Assembly (NCBI GenBank): GCA_019056805.1
Contig: DXJG01000011.1
Coordinates: 1-16,141 of the forward strand
Origin: Candidatus Baldrarchaeota archaeon
Lineage (GTDB): Archaea > Asgardarchaeota > Baldrarchaeia > Baldrarchaeales > DXJG01
Reading direction: 5' to 3'
DNA: 16,141 bases
Every line of letters starts with the position of its first letter. Positions within the stretch are counted from its first letter, which is position 1. The position numbers and the translations under genes are program-made. The notes beneath the pieces were generated by a model. The model ran no database searches. It had not been told where the DNA came from and was given only the letters and a program-made list of their open reading frames with translations. This document shows, in pieces, positions 5,303 through 14,775 of the stretch.

Positions 5303-6631
5303 ATGACATTACTTCATATCGGAATCGATGATACGGACTCACTTATTGGCGGTTGTACCACTTACATAGGTGCTAGGCTAGTTCATCGACTAGAAAAAGA
5401 AACAAAAGCCAAATTCATCGATTATCCAAACCTTATAAGATTAAACCCAAACATCCCATACAAAACAAGAGGAAACGGAGCTGTATGTCTAAGAATAAAC
5501 ATAGAAGAAAATATGATAGAAGATGTAGAAAACATTGTTATCGAAGAAGTAGAAGAAAACTCCGACCTAAAATGCGAAGAAACACATCCCGGAATCGTTT
5601 TCTTCAAAGGAAACGTCCCACCTGAACTTAAAAAATTCGCAAAGAAAGCTGTAACTGATGTCATAATGCTCGACGAAGCTCTAAAAATAGTAAACAAAAC
5701 CGGTGCAAAAATAAAAACCTACAAAAAGGGAAGAGGCATCATAGGGGCCCTGGCAGCCATCGGAAACACTTTAGAAAAAGACCACACATATGAACTGTTA
5801 TCCTACAGGTCCCCAGAACATTGGGGAACCCCCAGAACCATAGATGAAGACTCAGTTTATCTAATGGACAAGCTAACAAACCCAGAAACCTTCAACAACA
5901 TAGACAAGGAAACCAAAAGAATATTAATTACTCCCCACGGACCCGACCCAGTACTATATGGAATAAGAGGAGAAACCCCAGAAATAGTTAAACTAGCATC
6001 AAAAATCGTAGTATCATACGAGCCAATAGAAAGATGGGTAATATATAGAACAAACCAGGGAACAGATGAACACCTAACAAAACTAAGAAAAATAAAAGAA
6101 ATAAAACTATATCAACCAGCAAAAACCCTCGTAAAAATAATAGAACCACCTAAAATCATACCAGGAGGACATGTAATAGTAAAAGCGGCAGACAACACAG
6201 CAACCATCGATCTCGCTGCATACGAACCAACAGGAAACTTCAGAAAAATCATCCAAAAACTAATCCCAGGAGACACCATAATCGCGTACGGAGGAGTAAA
6301 ACCCCAAGAAAACAAACCTCTAACATTAAACCTGGAAAAAATAGAAATACTAAACTTAGCACCAAAAATAATATACAAAAACCCCAAATGCTCGAAATGC
6401 GGTAAAAGAATGAAATCAGCAGGAAAAAACCAAGGATACCGCTGCAAAAAATGCAAAACCCATGCAAAAAACATAGAAAAAGAAAAAATACAAATACCAA
6501 GAGAAATAAAGCCAGGAATATACCTACCGACACCAAGAGCACACAGACACCTTACTAAACCCCTTCAAAGATACGGCAGGGAAAAGAAAAACAAACCAAA
6601 AAAACTCATAGAAAAATGGCATTACCCCTAA
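5303..6631 (+). CDS. tiaS: tRNA(Ile2) agmatinylcytidine synthetase TiaS
   Basis: IGIDDTDS..GGCTTY, LIRLNPNIPYKTRGNGA, GRGIIGALAAIG, PHGPDPVLYGIRG, TNQGTDEHL, GGHV (OB fold), zinc ribbon CSKC..CKKC and RHLTKP. Confidence 0.96.
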   Translation: MTLLHIGIDDTDSLIGGCTTYIGARLVHRLEKETKAKFIDYPNLIRLNPNIPYKTRGNGAVCLRINIEENMIEDVENIVIEEVEENSDLKCEETHPGIVFFKGNVPPELKKFAKKAVTDVIMLDEALKIVNKTGAKIKTYKKGRGIIGALAAIGNTLEKDHTYELLSYRSPEHWGTPRTIDEDSVYLMDKLTNPETFNNIDKETKRILITPHGPDPVLYGIRGETPEIVKLASKIVVSYEPIERWVIYRTNQGTDEHLTKLRKIKEIKLYQPAKTLVKIIEPPKIIPGGHVIVKAADNTATIDLAAYEPTGNFRKIIQKLIPGDTIIAYGGVKPQENKPLTLNLEKIEILNLAPKIIYKNPKCSKCGKRMKSAGKNQGYRCKKCKTHAKNIEKEKIQIPREIKPGIYLPTPRAHRHLTKPLQRYGREKKNKPKKLIEKWHYP

Positions 6632-6685
6632 CCAAAACACTACAAGACAATAAACCCGCCCAAAAACCAAAAAGCAAACAAAAAC

Positions 6686-6703
6686 CAACGATAAATTTAA
6701 AAA
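6686..6703 (+). promoter_or_regulatory. Putative BRE/TATA promoter of tRNA-iMet
   Basis: CAACGATAAATTTAAAAA with TTTAAAA at 6696-6702. Typical archaeal spacing puts the start site near 6724-6728. Confidence 0.5.
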
Positions 6704-6726
6704 ACAAAAATATCACACACTAACAT

Positions 6727-6748
6727 AGCGGGGCAAAACACAGCGGGG
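6727..6748 (+). repeat. Direct repeat AGCGGGG (6727-6733 and 6742-6748), 8-nt spacer CAAAACAC; the repeat unit equals tRNA-iMet nt 1-7
   Basis: Seen directly: AGCGGGG-CAAAACAC-AGCGGGG. The upstream copy is a G-rich stretch in a flank that is otherwise almost free of G. Confidence 0.85.
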
Positions 6749-6779
6749 ACTACCCCAATACAAAATTGGGTAGCCGCAA
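6749..6779 (+). other. 31-nt non-canonical tRNA intron between nt 7 and 8
   Basis: Bulge-helix geometry: central helix GCGG(6743-46):CCGC(6774-77), 5' bulge GG|A, intron helix CUACCC(C)AAU:AUUGGGUAG, 3' bulge AA|U. Cutting after the second nt of each bulge joins G7 to U8 exactly. Confidence 0.85.
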
Positions 6780-6811
6780 TGGGGTAGCCAGGAGATCCCG
6801 CGGGGCTCATA

Positions 6812-6843
6812 AGCCCGACAGATACATCCTCTCGGGTTAAGAA
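6812..6843 (+). other. 32-nt canonical 37/38 tRNA intron
   Basis: Central helix CUCA:UAAG (one C:A mismatch), 5' bulge UA|A, intron helix GCCCGA:UCGGGU, 3' bulge AA|A. Confidence 0.92.
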
Positions 6844-6888
6844 ACCCCGAGATCGGAGGTTCAAATCCTCCCCCCGCTACCATATACC

Positions 6889-6920
6889 TTTACCTTTTTT
6901 GGTGGTTTTTTGTGGGTTTT
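6889..6920 (+). terminator. Oligo(T) terminator tracts after tRNA-iMet
   Basis: T6 runs at 6895-6900 and 6906-6911, immediately after CCA. Confidence 0.55.
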
Positions 6921-7466: not shown

Positions 7467-8942
7467 ATGAATACTAAGTTGACTAAGTTGGTAGGTGCGG
7501 CAATTATTGTGGTGCTACTTTCATTAACGGTCTATGGATGTTACGAATTATTGCTCAACGAGTCGGAGAAACCGTGCACAGCAAAGGTGAAAATGCATAT
7601 AATCCCGGTGGATGAGAAAGGAAAAGAGGTCCGGTGGAACTTCTGCACAGCAATACATAATTTTACCGAGTACTGGGCTAAGCCGCATAGCGAAGTAGTA
7701 TATCTAGGAACCAAAAGAACGGTGACATTGAATGTGCATAGAGAACTACTTATTGGAGGAAGATTGCTTATCCATGAATATGCCATCTTCCTGTATAATG
7801 GTACGCACTCGGGTGGAAAGCTGGTTCGTATAGAGCCTAGGGAGTACCGTATTGAACTTTCCATCAGAATACGTGTATATAGGGTATCTGAAAACTCACA
7901 TTCACCTCTAAGAAAAGTCGTACCACCCCTACTTAACTCGTCGTCAGAACCAGTAAAAGGTTATTGCTATGAGGAACTCGAAGAAGTTGTATATACGTCA
8001 GAATTGATGCCTGCTTTACAACTTCATTCAATAGGAGGAATTTCCGTTAGCGTCCACTTTGAAATAGGCAACTACTTATTCTATTCTCAAAAGTATAGAG
8101 AAGCAGATCTACCGGGTGAGTGGGGTCCTTGGCAGACATCTGGCGATAAGGCCACAAAATCTAACAATAAACTCACAACGGGATCAATTTCGGGTGGCAG
8201 TAAAAAGTGGATCTACGTAAACGTAGATTATAGATATGAGCGATGGTTTTACGGGGTGGATTGGGTCCAATGGTGGAGGGAAATAGTGACGCCAGTGAGT
8301 TTTGGAGGATATGACTGGGGTGAGTCTATATCATGCACTTACTGTGAAGGAACTCCTACAGGCTTTGTACAGAGCTATCCTAGGGGCACTGGAATGCCTA
8401 TCGAAATGAGCCTAGGTCCAGGCATCAGCGAGATTGAGAGATCAGGTATAAGCGTATCCTTCGAGGTGTCTTATGGTGTGGTCTCCCTGACTGTAGAGTT
8501 ATGGTATGAAATAGAGAGAGGTGAAGCTCTCTATCCTCCATCAATACTGGTTAATGTAGATACATGGTACGCTGACACTTTATATGTCTTCGATGCCAGC
8601 ACCGAGTGGAAGGTAGTGCATTTCACGTGGAGTGGCGGAGGTAGTGGTGGTATGGTTTTTAGGCGTGGTGTTTTTAGGGTTTCTGATTATTGGGTTAGGG
8701 AATGTATTTCTTGGTTTGTTAGGGATCTTGATCTTAATAGATTGGGTGATTTCTTTATTGTTGGTCTGGGTTGTGGTTATAGTCCTTTCCATAAGTATCT
8801 TGAAGATGTAGTTAGGGTTGAAGGTAAGGCTCGTGATATTGAGGTGTATACGGGTTACTATGAAGGGGTTAAGGTATCTGCTATTGCGACTCCTGGTGGT
8901 ATGGTTCATACGGAGCCTGTGGTGATTTTGGGAGGTTGCTAG
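7467..8942 (+). CDS. Hypothetical secreted or membrane-anchored protein (~395 aa) fused in frame to the N-terminal ~96 aa of a nucleoside phosphorylase
   Basis: N-terminal basic plus hydrophobic segment (KLTKLVGAAIIVVLLSLTVYGCY), sequons NFT, NGT and NSS, beta-rich aromatic body, then a GGGSGG linker. From ATG 8652 the sequence resembles a PNP/UDP N-terminus (YTGYYEGVKVSAIATPGG). Confidence 0.65.
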   Translation: MNTKLTKLVGAAIIVVLLSLTVYGCYELLLNESEKPCTAKVKMHIIPVDEKGKEVRWNFCTAIHNFTEYWAKPHSEVVYLGTKRTVTLNVHRELLIGGRLLIHEYAIFLYNGTHSGGKLVRIEPREYRIELSIRIRVYRVSENSHSPLRKVVPPLLNSSSEPVKGYCYEELEEVVYTSELMPALQLHSIGGISVSVHFEIGNYLFYSQKYREADLPGEWGPWQTSGDKATKSNNKLTTGSISGGSKKWIYVNVDYRYERWFYGVDWVQWWREIVTPVSFGGYDWGESISCTYCEGTPTGFVQSYPRGTGMPIEMSLGPGISEIERSGISVSFEVSYGVVSLTVELWYEIERGEALYPPSILVNVDTWYADTLYVFDASTEWKVVHFTWSGGGSGGMVFRRGVFRVSDYWVRECISWFVRDLDLNRLGDFFIVGLGCGYSPFHKYLEDVVRVEGKARDIEVYTGYYEGVKVSAIATPGGMVHTEPVVILGGC

Positions 8943-9560: not shown

Positions 9561-12500
9561 CTAGTTTTGTTCTTCGGTGGGGTGTATGATTTTTTGGTTG
9601 ATGAGGATTTTTAGGGTTTTTAGGGTTTTTAGTGGGTTTATTTTTTCTTTTTTGGTTACTTCTGTTAGTAGTTTTGCTATGGTGAATGATCCTTCTATTT
9701 CTGTGATTTCTTTCGCTACTTTTAATATTTTTCTTTTGATTCCTCTAATTCTTGGAGGGATTTCTGTGACTTCGTATTTTGTGAAGATGTGTTTTGGGAA
9801 GCTTTCTTTTACTATGTTTTTGGCTTTGTCAAAAATTGATATTTCGAAGGTGTTGGTTTTAAGGTTTTTTTCGAATTTGTCTTCAAATTTGTCTAGGAAG
9901 TTTCTTAGGGATTCTTTTATTTCTGGGAGTAGTTTTCCGGGTGCTATGAGTATTGAGTAGGCGTATTTTCCTGAGTGGAATGTTAGTACTTTGGGTTCTG
10001 GGGTTTCGTAGTATATTTCTCCAATTTCTCCTTCTCCTGTGCCTCCGATTTCGGAGTAGAATCCTCTTACTGCTTGGACAAATCCTGCTACGATGTTTGG
10101 GTCTGTAGGTGTCTTTTTGAAGGAGTATTCGAATATGCAGCGTCCGCTTTCTTTGTCGACGACTAGGAGAGATTCTAGGCTGTTGAGTTCTAATATGAGT
10201 TCGTATTCTCGTAGAAGTTTTTTGTTTTCTGTTTTTATTTTGTGTTTTCTTTTTGATATGTATCCGAAGGTTCCTATAAAGATGATAGATGTGATTAATA
10301 TTATTGTGGTAAGCCAGCGTGGAAGTAGGGATTTCGAAGTTGAAATAGAGGGTTTGATTGTGATGTTGTAGGTGGTGTGTGCGGAGGTTTTATCGGTCAT
10401 TCCTTCGTAAACTACTGTTATTTGTATTTTGGACATTTCGTTATTTGTTGGTATGGTGTATGAGAATTCTCCTTTCGTGTTTGTTACGGTTTCGTATTCA
10501 AATTGTTTCTTTGTTCCATTTTTGTAAGTCACTAAGACTATTATTTTGATGGTTGCCATGCCTATTGGATCTTTGTTTTCTGTGGTTAGAGTTCCTGATA
10601 TTAATATGGTGTTGCCAGCAGTTACTTCTTGTGGGACATTAACTGTAAGTATTGTGCGTGTTTTTGGTAGAATGTAAAGTGGAATTTCAAGTGTTTGTGG
10701 AAGATAGTATGGTGCCTCTATTACTACGTTTATTGAATAGTTGCCGGGTTGGAGTCCTGTTAGGTTTAAAGTGCAGCTATAGTTTTGATAGTTAAATGTT
10801 GCAAGCCATTTATGGTTGTTTACGGTTAATGTGATGCTGCAGTTTTCTAATGGAGTGTTTCGGAAAGAATCTATGATGTTAAAGTGTATTGTTATTGTTT
10901 CGTTTTCATATTGTTTAAGGACTTGGGGTTGATATGTTATTTTCATTTTTCCATAAATTGTTAGGTATCCTTTCCATGTTTTGGTTTCATGATTTGGGCA
11001 GTTTACCATGATGGAGATGGAGTAGTTGCCGACATATTGTGTTATGTTAAAGTAGATGGTTGATGAGTTGCTAAAGATTGTAAGTACTGATTCGTTGAGA
11101 TAAATTGTGCCATTAAAGTGGGTTATTGGGTTTCCCCATTGATCTGTATAGTTTATTGATATTGTAAACTGTTGTCCGGCTTCTATTTCTTTGGGGCATA
11201 ATACATCAAGATTCGTTTTCTTGGGCATTATGCGAATTGTGATGTTTATTTCTTTGGGTTCATAGCTCTCTTTTGAACATTGAATTGTCATATTGTACGT
11301 TCCTAGTTCATGAAAAGTTGTTATATTTATGTATGCCGTGCCATTATATTCGAAAATGTATTTTGATGTCCCAATGTATCCTATAACGGTTGCATTTTCA
11401 AGATGTGTGCCATTAATATCTGTGTAATAGATGGTTATTGTTAATGGGGTTTCATAGTTTCCAATTATGGTTTCATTTGGCATGCTTACATTTGTTGAAT
11501 ACACAAATGTGATGTTAAAGCTGAGGATTGCATCTTCATATCCCGTTTTTTGAGCGTATACGGTCAAGGAATGATTCCCAGAAGAATATCCCTTTGTGGT
11601 GAGGTTGGCGGCATATATACCTTCTCCTTCATCTTTGAAGTAAGTAACTTGGTTGTTCCACGTTGTCCAGACCGTTGCACCTTCTATTCCGGTATCGTGA
11701 ACTTTATCAACATATTTTACCTTTACTGTTGCATTTTCACCTATACAATAATAGGGAGCAGTATGGCTTTCAAGAAATGCGGAATACACAAATAAAACAT
11801 TACCAATGTACAGGTAACCAGCTTCGAATCCTGTAAGAAAAAGTGTTGCAATAATGTATGTTCCATTTGTAAATGACTTATCTGGTGTCCAGTAGATTCC
11901 TAGTGATGACTTATTGTTGGTTGGTTGCGAAGTATTGTAATAGAGAATATTATCTGAGGAGTTGTATACTAAGAAGGTGAGGGTCCCGTTCCAATCATGA
12001 GCTCCTGGTATTAGAAGAATTAAAAAGGAATTTTCTTCGTCTATAATAACGGGTGAGGGAGAATCGATTTTTTTAACGTAGTTGGGACTAGTGAACTCTA
12101 TGCGCCAGTTATCGTAAACATATAAAGTAATGTTTTTCCAGTTTGCTGCAGTAATTGGTGTTTCCTCTATGTCTGTTATATTCCAGCATCTGGAGACATT
12201 CCAATCTTTTGGAACTTTGAATGTAACACTACAATTTGTAAAGGTTGACGGAAAGGTTTCAGAGGGTGAAACGTTCCAGAAAACTGTAGTAGTATCAGCA
12301 TCTGCTAAAAATCTTGTCAGACACCGACTGTCTTTGTCGTGTTTCATAAGGTAATTTAGATCAAAGGTTATGTTCCAAAGAGAAGTTATGTTAAACGTTA
12401 TACTTTCGCTATTGTTGAGTACGCCCTCTAGTTCTATGATTCCACTATTCGGTACTTGTGTTCCGTTAACTTGAAGATTTATTTCTGAAGGTGAGAGGGA

Positions 12501-13379
12501 TAGGTCGAGTGGTTGAAGATTTAAATCCATGACCATATCGATATTTGAGATGTTGTACGTGTTTGATATCCAGACATCTTCTTCGTTTTCTCCATCCGTA
12601 GCGTCGTTAACACAATACCACCAAAAATCGTATGCTTTTGGCGCGGGAGGTCCTGCTTCGGCTTCTAACCGTATGAAAAATGTGTTATTATCCGTTTCGT
12701 TGGTGAGAAGTGTAACATTGATATTTAGTGATAGAAAAAACTGGTCTAAAGAGGATGCGGTTTCAAACAGGGTTTCTCCACTTTTAATTATTTTGTCAGG
12801 ATACGAAGTATTAGAGAGAGAATTCCACGTAGAGTTTAAGATAGCCCACCTCAAAGTAAAACTACCGTCAACGTAAACCAAGATTTGTACCGTATCTAGG
12901 TGGCATGACATAGGTAGGGTAAAAGAAGCGTATACGGTTAGATTCTGGTCATTACTATTTTCAAAGAATTTTACGTAACCATCTGGACTATCCTCTTCTA
13001 TTATTTTTGAGAAATTTTGCGGTGTTATTTTTTCAAATTTAAGCCTTATATTACTCGTACTATATCCATAAGTCTTTACTTGAGTAATATTGGCAAACTT
13101 GTCAAATCTTCTATTTGTATCGATAAAAAAATGATTCGTGGAAGCATTACCAAGCGATCTATTTTGTTGTCCATAAAGAATTGTCAAAATTCTTGATCCA
13201 TTTCCCTTAATATATGGTTGAAATGTTTCTATCGAGTCTGTTTCAATAATATTATCATTTTCTAAGCATCTGGAGGGAGGAGAAGTTACCCAGAGGACGC
13301 TGAATATTAATGGTAAAATTAATAGTATGAAAATTTGCCTAGTTCTTCGGGAACTCTTTAACAACTGGGTACCTCCCAA
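9561..13379 (-). CDS. Large single-pass surface protein: signal anchor, ~1000-aa glycosylated ectodomain with about five Ig-like repeats, TM helix, cytoplasmic longin-like and winged-helix-like domains
   Basis: N-terminal RRTRQIFILLILPLIFSVLW, many NxS/T sequons, and repeats of the type (V/I)xYxD..G.P(I/L)..A.V..Y.(L/I)T(V/I)...K.GY. TM WLTTIILITSIIFIGTFGYI (~10260-10315) is followed by SKRKHK, then LLVVDKESGRCIFEYSF..DPNIVAGFVQAVRGFYSEI. The likely start is TTG 13364, 6 nt after GGAGGT. Confidence 0.8.
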   Translation of the reverse strand: MGGTQLLKSSRRTRQIFILLILPLIFSVLWVTSPPSRCLENDNIIETDSIETFQPYIKGNGSRILTILYGQQNRSLGNASTNHFFIDTNRRFDKFANITQVKTYGYSTSNIRLKFEKITPQNFSKIIEEDSPDGYVKFFENSNDQNLTVYASFTLPMSCHLDTVQILVYVDGSFTLRWAILNSTWNSLSNTSYPDKIIKSGETLFETASSLDQFFLSLNINVTLLTNETDNNTFFIRLEAEAGPPAPKAYDFWWYCVNDATDGENEEDVWISNTYNISNIDMVMDLNLQPLDLSLSPSEINLQVNGTQVPNSGIIELEGVLNNSESITFNITSLWNITFDLNYLMKHDKDSRCLTRFLADADTTTVFWNVSPSETFPSTFTNCSVTFKVPKDWNVSRCWNITDIEETPITAANWKNITLYVYDNWRIEFTSPNYVKKIDSPSPVIIDEENSFLILLIPGAHDWNGTLTFLVYNSSDNILYYNTSQPTNNKSSLGIYWTPDKSFTNGTYIIATLFLTGFEAGYLYIGNVLFVYSAFLESHTAPYYCIGENATVKVKYVDKVHDTGIEGATVWTTWNNQVTYFKDEGEGIYAANLTTKGYSSGNHSLTVYAQKTGYEDAILSFNITFVYSTNVSMPNETIIGNYETPLTITIYYTDINGTHLENATVIGYIGTSKYIFEYNGTAYINITTFHELGTYNMTIQCSKESYEPKEINITIRIMPKKTNLDVLCPKEIEAGQQFTISINYTDQWGNPITHFNGTIYLNESVLTIFSNSSTIYFNITQYVGNYSISIMVNCPNHETKTWKGYLTIYGKMKITYQPQVLKQYENETITIHFNIIDSFRNTPLENCSITLTVNNHKWLATFNYQNYSCTLNLTGLQPGNYSINVVIEAPYYLPQTLEIPLYILPKTRTILTVNVPQEVTAGNTILISGTLTTENKDPIGMATIKIIVLVTYKNGTKKQFEYETVTNTKGEFSYTIPTNNEMSKIQITVVYEGMTDKTSAHTTYNITIKPSISTSKSLLPRWLTTIILITSIIFIGTFGYISKRKHKIKTENKKLLREYELILELNSLESLLVVDKESGRCIFEYSFKKTPTDPNIVAGFVQAVRGFYSEIGGTGEGEIGEIYYETPEPKVLTFHSGKYAYSILIAPGKLLPEIKESLRNFLDKFEDKFEKNLKTNTFEISIFDKAKNIVKESFPKHIFTKYEVTEIPPRIRGIKRKILKVAKEITEIEGSFTIAKLLTEVTKKEKINPLKTLKTLKILINQKIIHPTEEQN

Positions 13380-14697: not shown

Positions 14698-14775
14698 TGG
14701 TGGGCCCGGAGGGATTTGAACCCTCGACCGCCCGGTTATGAGCCGGACGCTCTAACCTGGCTAAGCTACGGGCCC
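14698..14775 (-). tRNA. tRNA-Ile2(CAU), intronless, CCA encoded (TiaS substrate)
   Basis: Reverse complement GGGCCCG-UA-GCUU-AGCCAGGUUA-GAGC-G-UCCGG-CUCAUAA-CCGGG-CGGUC-GAGGG-UUCAAAU-CCCUC-CGGGCCC-A-CCA, 78 nt. The GGGCCC acceptor is the isoleucine type, and it closely matches the recalled Archaeoglobus tRNA-Ile2. Confidence 0.9.

Follow-up and report, generated by a model that had tools for sequence, protein, structure and literature searches.

The window analysed here, a 16,141-nt stretch of DNA that makes up contig C1 of a 1.92-Mb, 18-contig archaeal bin assembled from metagenomes, carries on its forward strand an initiator tRNA-Met (iMet) gene that is interrupted by two introns and preceded by a second copy of its own first seven bases. 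The gene was rebuilt by hand and with an intron-length sweep. Exon 1 (6742–6748) supplies tRNA positions 1–7, and its GCGG (6743–6746) is the 5′ strand of a central splicing helix. It is followed by a 31-nt intron between positions 7 and 8 (7/8; 6749–6779), assigned to the HBh′ type from motif geometry; by exon 2 (6780–6811), which holds the D arm, the anticodon stem and CAU (positions 8–37); by a 32-nt intron at the canonical 37/38 site (6812–6843), of hBHBh′ type with three of four central base pairs, a 6-bp h′ and a 5-bp h; and by exon 3 (6844–6882, positions 38–76), with CCCCGCT at 6872–6878, A73 at 6879 and an encoded CCA at 6880–6882. A run of T residues on the same strand (6895–6900) is the likely transcription stop, with a second run at 6906–6911.

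The motif recognized in archaeal tRNA splicing comprises a 4-bp central helix, whose bases lie two upstream of each cut, 3-nt bulges and a flanking helix of at least 2 bp (restated in bioRxiv 10.64898/2026.10.13.758758). At intron 1, GCGG (6743–6746; tRNA bases 2–5) pairs with CCGC (6774–6777) in all four positions, the bulges are GG/A and AA/T, with the cut at the slash, and CTACCC (6750–6755) pairs with GGGTAG (6768–6773) in a 6-bp h′; there is no outer helix. Only the downstream copy of the repeated heptamer fits this geometry, as the earlier note on this DNA had maintained: the upstream copy could build the same 4-bp helix with no flanking helix, and for this reason we rejected it as an alternative 5′ splice site. 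Intron bases 6750–6757 (CTACCCCA) are perfectly complementary to the start of exon 2 at 6780–6787 (TGGGGTAG), an 8-bp helix that rivals h′ in models, and the 3′ part of the intron (TGGGTAGCC) looks like TGGGGTAGCC of exon 2; both features may hint that the intron was born by local duplication.

Removal of both introns yields a 77-nt RNA that ARAGORN calls as a full-length tRNA-Met(cat). The spliced product has an A1:U72 pair, GGG/CCC at the base of the anticodon stem and a CUCAUAA loop, and the combination of A1:U72 with three G:C pairs identifies this CAU tRNA as the initiator. The unspliced gene escaped both ARAGORN and an Rfam gathering scan of the window, RF00005 reaching 27.8 bits at 6778–6879 against a cut-off of 29, and a separate elongator tRNA-Met is found by both programs at 14698–14775. 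Upstream of the iMet gene, and ending 96 nt before the leader copy, lies the gene for TiaS (5303–6631, forward strand), the agmatidine synthetase whose substrate is tRNA-Ile2 with a CAU anticodon; by its A1:U72 pair and anticodon stem, the CAU tRNA beside it is the initiator and not tRNA-Ile2. The neighbours of the iMet gene are TiaS and an ORF without a Pfam match. Elsewhere in the window, a 491-aa ORF (7467–8942, forward strand) has no Pfam match and a 1272-aa ORF (9561–13379, reverse strand) has a weak carboxypeptidase-regulatory-like match alone.

Components of the expected processing machinery are present. The archaeal RNase P RNA, part of the enzyme expected to remove the leader, is encoded at 210–601 on the forward strand (RF00373, 178 bits) and, compared with the Rfam model, has several long insertions. 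Matches to PF01974 in open frames of 189 and 203 aa mark two EndA paralogues in the genome (C9:197884–198129 and C9:13779–14039), a pair that would fit a broad-specificity alpha/beta heterotetramer. Most tRNA genes of the window genome (G000) bear introns, often in the D loop after position 16–20 (for example C5:3063–3159, C9:4520–4612 and C17:29566–29669), and nearly all encode CCA.

The heptamer AGCGGGG occurs on the forward strand at 6727–6733 and again as exon 1 at 6742–6748, with its reverse complement CCCCGCT at 6872–6878. The observation that started this work, two copies 15 nt apart in a G-poor flank, is accurate. Both strands of the window together hold four matches, compared with 0.77 expected from shuffles; per 60-nt leader the expectation is 6.7e-4 at the genome-wide frequency and about 1.2e-6 at the local composition, the latter so small because the 95 nt upstream carry just 4 G. 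The adjoining stretch 5500–6726, which runs from the 3′ part of TiaS through the intergenic region, has very little G and an A-over-T skew of up to 0.56. Logan contigs assembled separately from runs of three studies (X1, X3 and X4) span at least 6606–6888 and bridge the repeat with zero differences; the repeat is therefore not an assembly duplication, and an artefact that the earlier note had listed as a possible refutation is removed.

A TATA-like box, TTTAAAAA, at 6696–6703 on the forward strand is read from the sequence as a putative tRNA promoter. It lies 24–31 nt ahead of 6727, the usual archaeal distance from TATA box to start, and (C)TTTAAA or CTTAAA boxes stand 28–43 nt before the 5′ ends of other tRNA genes of the same genome, which is too AT-rich for typical leader lengths to be read from a simple search for TATA-like words. 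Judged from the position of the box, the transcript probably opens with the extra AGCGGGG, a duplicate of tRNA bases 1–7; transcription could also start inside the spacer, from a weaker A/T-rich stretch at 6705–6712, which would leave the copy outside the transcript. Together with a T6726:A6879 pair, the leader copy (6727–6733), our proposed placeholder on the basis of sequence and folding models, can form 8 bp with the 3′ strand. The remainder of the proposed 15-nt leader is an 8-nt spacer, CAAAACAC (6734–6741), which varies in length (3–10 nt) and in sequence across every related case described below.

Folding of the precursor in models

Because the central helix of intron 1 uses tRNA bases 2–5, its formation excludes the acceptor stem, and the two helices are mutually exclusive. 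What difference does the upstream copy make to this competition? Our models treat equilibrium secondary structure, leaving out co-transcriptional folding, proteins and tertiary contacts. In the partition function of a transcript spanning 6727–6881, the leader copy pairs with the 3′ strand at 6872–6878 with a probability of 0.89–0.99, and the central helix forms with a probability of 0.45–0.47 at 37 °C, 0.28–0.30 at 60 °C and 0.17–0.19 at 75 °C. If the transcript instead starts at 6734 or 6742, or if the copy is swapped for any of four unrelated 7-mers, the central helix drops to 0.006 or less and the acceptor stem takes about 0.9–0.99. With the helices of the motif enforced and its bulges kept unpaired, the ensemble probability of the whole motif at 37 °C is 130 times higher with the copy than without it, and constrained ensembles of six related iMet genes give gains of 13- to 130-fold. 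For the relatives described below whose intron lies at 4/5, the unconstrained fold adopts another register of the same hairpin, with a central-helix probability of about 0, so that the constrained ensembles alone are informative there.

The earlier note had proposed that the upstream copy pairs with the 3′ acceptor strand, frees the downstream copy for the splicing helix and, after ligation, yields to it by strand exchange, leaving a 15-nt leader for RNase P. Modelling and comparison support the first part of this switch. The last part is not supported by the two-dimensional model: once both introns are removed, the placeholder helix persists at 0.97–0.99, against 0.01–0.03 for the native acceptor stem, since the exon strand, now free, is taken up in pairing with the D-arm 3′ strand. 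If these models are a guide, release must depend on tertiary folding, on proteins or on kinetic capture of the minor conformer by RNase P.

Leader copies in initiator genes of relatives and in other tRNA genes

We collected 57 distinct iMet genes from relatives of the window genome and of a second genome, the Bathyarchaeia bin that carries locus L034. Of these, 51 lack an intron in the 5′ acceptor strand, and each of the 51 contains exactly one copy of its own 7-mer in the 230 nt before the anticodon. The look-alike intron of L034 itself, 31 nt long at 7/8, shares its final GTAGCCGCAA with intron 1 of the window, and its h′, CTACTCA:TGAGTAG, is a compensatory variant. The locus holds three copies of AGCGGGG with AAT between them. 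TATA-like boxes lie about 30 nt before the first copy and about 30 nt before the third, real copy, an arrangement that suggests two possible starts, one with decoys and one without. At about 990–1050 of L034, and in the same DNA in L094, AGCGGGG is in tandem with a period of 10 nt. A third variant of the 7/8 intron, its h′ CTGCTTGT:ACAAGCAG likewise compensatory, was found in a contig of run X5 that does not show the leader. When metagenomes were scanned for the intron's 3′ end, the sole match was another copy of the L034 locus, and among 400 relatives of the L034 genome a pattern scan found, besides L034, random non-tRNA matches alone.

In five further Bathyarchaeia species AGCGGGG is followed by an insert of 38–39 nt. 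Read as a 38-nt 7/8 intron, this insert was rejected, no pair of cut sites giving a central helix. When A1 is set 9–10 bases downstream, a complete hBHBh′ motif appears at 4/5, with h ACC:GGT, H GTAG:CTGY, h′ GAGC:GCTC and bulges CG/A and AC/G; it uses leader bases, and splicing rebuilds AGCGGGG-U8 exactly. The full AGCGGGG copy thus lies 9–10 nt upstream in the leader even though exon 1 is only 4 nt long, and a TATA-like box precedes the first copy by about 30 nt. The leader copy is invariant in all five species; of the flanking columns, 8 of 24 are invariant between TATA box and copy, 4 of 42 in the trailer and 1 of 57 farther upstream. In G001, a genome of the same genus as the window, iMet is present as two near-identical copies without introns (L030 and L172), neither of which has a leader copy, a weak control given 9% contamination, no shared flanks and uncertain orthology; no iMet match was found in G002 and G003.

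Partial RF00005 matches in five of these genomes led to four more gene lineages whose first intron borrows the 5′ acceptor strand, confirmed with our own motif finder and ARAGORN. Their introns lie at 8/9 or 9/10, and their central helices use acceptor bases 3–6 or 4–7. A tRNA-Cys gene with an 8/9 intron has GCCAGGG twice, 7 nt apart. In a tRNA-Met(CAU) gene whose exon begins GCCGGGG, the leader carries TGGTGCCGGAG, the exact complement of the 3′ end CTCCGGCACCA, so that the element pairs through the discriminator and CCA. A tRNA-Arg(CCG) gene with a 9/10 intron has the leader element GGGCGGa in two genomes whose spacers differ. The fourth, a Pro-like tRNA gene, at first seemed an exception; its leader has two tandem cAGCTCC units that pair with bases 68–73. 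At this locus, L133 (G122:C8), the motif finder placed the first intron alone, and the leader contains the tandem 13-nt repeat CCAGCTCC-AACAA-CCAGCTCC, a degenerate two-copy element.

To compare invaded with other genes on one scale, 72 tRNA genes were scored with RNAduplex for how well the 45-nt leader pairs with the 3′ strand and the discriminator. Duplex energies range from −12.0 to −16.4 kcal/mol in all seven invaded lineages (iMet with its three types of intron, and Cys, Met, Arg and Pro-like, every one with a sequence of its own), and from −10.5 to +1.2 kcal/mol in 60 others; the window's iMet leader and 3′ end score −15.2 kcal/mol. The separation is complete (U = 0, p about 9e-6), a value that is optimistic, as the genes are related and the intron positions were assigned by us, by hand or with our motif finder, which overstates their independence. 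Within the window genome, iMet is the only one of 36 CCA-encoding tRNA genes with an intron before position 16; the other 35 are contiguous through at least position 15, and in none of these 35 does a second 7-mer pair with the 3′ strand. In the L034 genome the leader element accompanies all three invaded genes and is matched in 1 of 21 others by a wobble-rich chance pairing. Across the invaded genes the copy spans 5–7 acceptor positions and exon 1 measures 4, 7, 8 or 9 nt, and by these extents the leader copy tracks the acceptor strand and not exon 1.

A proposed placeholder strand and its alternatives

We propose the following model for maturation of the initiator precursor. Exon 1 (6742–6748) would pair with the intron through GCGG:CCGC to form the bulge-helix-bulge (BHB) recognized by the splicing endonuclease; in the acceptor stem, these bases have the 3′ acceptor strand as their partner. 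Situated where the transcript starts or very close by, the leader copy (6727–6733) would pair with the 3′ strand CCCCGCU in their place, and a 3′ strand so held could not displace the splicing helix. Once intron 1 has been cut out and the exons joined at 7/8, the reconstituted tRNA body would compete with the leader copy for the 3′ strand, and RNase P cleavage between 6741 and 6742 would discard the 15-nt leader for good. Most likely, then, the leader copy keeps the 3′ end of the tRNA occupied and leaves the real first strand available for the cutting signal. This role is supported by modelling and by a consistent comparative pattern, of which the comparison across 72 tRNA genes is, as we read these sequences, the strongest evidence; what we infer is where transcription starts, that the strands pair inside cells, in which order splicing and RNase P act, and how the 3′ strand is released. 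Taken as a whole, we consider this account of the precursor somewhat more probable than all else together. Against it, transcription completes the splicing motif about 90 nt ahead of the 3′ strand, and the motif might be cut co-transcriptionally with no helper of any kind. The position of the TATA box also matches the upstream copy as an ancestral +1, which fits an origin of the copy as a relic too.

Could the upstream copy be a functionless relic, the original start of the gene left behind when a local duplication or mobile-element event placed a new exon 1 and intron behind it, and tolerated since it is cut away by RNase P? Disrupted archaeal tRNA genes with remnants of their 5′ part next to them are documented (PMC3293823), the 10-nt tandem unit of L034 resembles slippage, the TATA box stands about 30 nt before the upstream copy as it would before the ancestral start, and TGGGTAGCC, from the 3′ side of the intron, is similar to the first bases of exon 2. 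Against a relic, the copy ends at acceptor position 6–7 regardless of exon 1 length, and since exon 1 of the 4/5 group has 4 nt, the copy there is not a repeat of contiguous DNA. It is moreover invariant in five species with diverged flanks, and such a leader occurs in none of the 60 non-invaded genes. The Met element, which differs from its exon toward better pairing and complements the 3′ end through CCA, cannot be explained by duplication of a gene start, and the Pro-like element is a partial copy with an added base pairing with U73. A Pfam scan of the ten largest ORFs of the window found no integrase or transposase domain, and the repeat is just 7 nt long. We therefore regard a functionless relic as improbable. 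The related suggestion of the earlier note, that the repeat is a scar of intron gain, is weakened as an account of its origin; a duplication origin is possible, and an element that arose by duplication and was then kept for its function would agree with all the data.

A different function for the same pairing is less probable still, and we consider it quite doubtful. The copy would here pair with the 3′ end without promoting formation of the motif, either to block RNase P, 3′ trimming or aminoacylation until splicing is done or to shield the end from exonucleases. Such a reading is consistent with the dominance of the placeholder helix both before and after splicing in our model, with the element of one relative that covers the discriminator and CCA, and with inhibition of bacterial RNase P by leader pairing with the 3′ RCCA (PMC9433436). 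It leaves unexplained why the element is restricted to introns that borrow the 5′ acceptor strand and is not seen in the many genes with introns in the D loop, anticodon or T arm. A chance repeat or an assembly artefact, conceivable for a short 7-mer in a metagenome-assembled bin, is effectively refuted already by a leader expectation of at most 6.7e-4, by the base-for-base agreement of contigs from three studies and by the recurrence of the arrangement in other genes and genomes.

The placeholder strand that we favour has partial counterparts. Transcription attenuators are switches in which three segments compete for mutually exclusive helices and the pair that forms sets the outcome. The iMet precursor likewise has three competing segments; unlike attenuators, it involves no ribosome, ligand or terminator, and intron removal would drive the proposed switch. 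Thermoproteales and other intron-rich archaea are known to have non-canonical and multiple BHB introns (PMC4090602, PMC4033280). Intron 1 shares with archaeal BHB introns a central helix of 4 bp, a pair of 3-nt bulges, each cut after its second base, and the relaxed HBh′ form, and, as in intron-rich archaea, the genome has two EndA paralogues and the gene more than one intron. It differs from the described BHB introns in that acceptor bases 2–5 build the central helix and the leader carries a spare strand; an acceptor-copying leader element is not mentioned in PMC4090602, PMC4033280 or bioRxiv 10.64898/2026.10.13.758758. We class the element as an accessory element of non-canonical BHB introns.

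Helices of leader and trailer sequences are known from the split tRNAs of Nanoarchaeum equitans and Caldivirga maquilingensis and from permuted tRNAs (PMC4090602, PMC3978253). There, as proposed here, pairing outside the mature tRNA presents the splicing motif and is later discarded. In those systems, however, the two flanks are paired together and themselves make up the motif, whereas the leader described here would pair with the mature 3′ acceptor strand; it would act indirectly, by removing a competitor, and would be taken off by RNase P and not by EndA. In tRNA-Thr of Caldiarchaeum subterraneum, integration of an element leaves a 5′ gene fragment (PMC3293823), so that a 5′ duplicate lies upstream of an intron-bearing copy, as at our locus. 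That fragment covers positions 1–27, with identical upstream DNA and element DNA in between (PMC3293823), unlike the present copy, which comprises the acceptor strand alone, lies 3–10 nt from the gene, is conserved and in one relative complements the 3′ end beyond the start of the gene. Bacterial pre-tRNAs in which pairing of the 5′ leader with the 3′ RCCA hinders RNase P (PMC9433436) resemble the proposed arrangement in that 5′ processing is influenced by a leader bound to the precursor's 3′ end; the bacterial leader extends a normal acceptor stem, whereas the leader here would replace the 5′ acceptor strand.

What is the relevance of a spare strand in the leader? Introns within or beside the acceptor stem face a folding conflict, as the bases needed for the cutting signal are those that close the tRNA, and this conflict is unaddressed in the literature on archaeal tRNA introns. 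A spare leader strand would settle it by RNA alone, would explain how such introns persist and predicts an enforced order of processing. If true more widely, a stand-in strand would be kept at the 5′ end of the transcript wherever the splicing motif borrows the 5′ acceptor strand; it would sequester the 3′ end, impose splicing before RNase P cleavage and leave with the leader, and introns could thereby settle in the acceptor stem where they would otherwise block their own removal. Whether leader copies form such a general and so far undescribed class of cis-acting folding helper in archaeal pre-tRNAs, with these consequences for processing order and intron settlement, we consider evenly balanced. 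Leader copies of the acceptor strand are not described in the reviews and primary papers that we searched on archaeal tRNA introns, on split and permuted tRNAs and on EndA specificity.

The leader copy also offers a simple extra signal for tRNA genes that finders such as ARAGORN and Rfam miss and for placing their true 5′ ends; the gene missed by both programs in this window is that of the essential initiator tRNA. Two further kinds of disrupted gene came to light among the genomes compared. In L134 (G122:C10) and L139 (G123:C9), the sequence that follows the T arm of a tRNA-like gene does not run into the acceptor strand, and an intron or other interruption on the 3′ side may be present, which would be the mirror case of the genes described here. 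In L003 (G006:C33, 1–206) and in L016 (G010:C6, with G010:C5:19313–19349), the initiator tRNA appears as a separate 3′ half, and in one of these two relatives the 5′ half lies on another contig; by their arrangement, both look like split, trans-spliced iMet genes.
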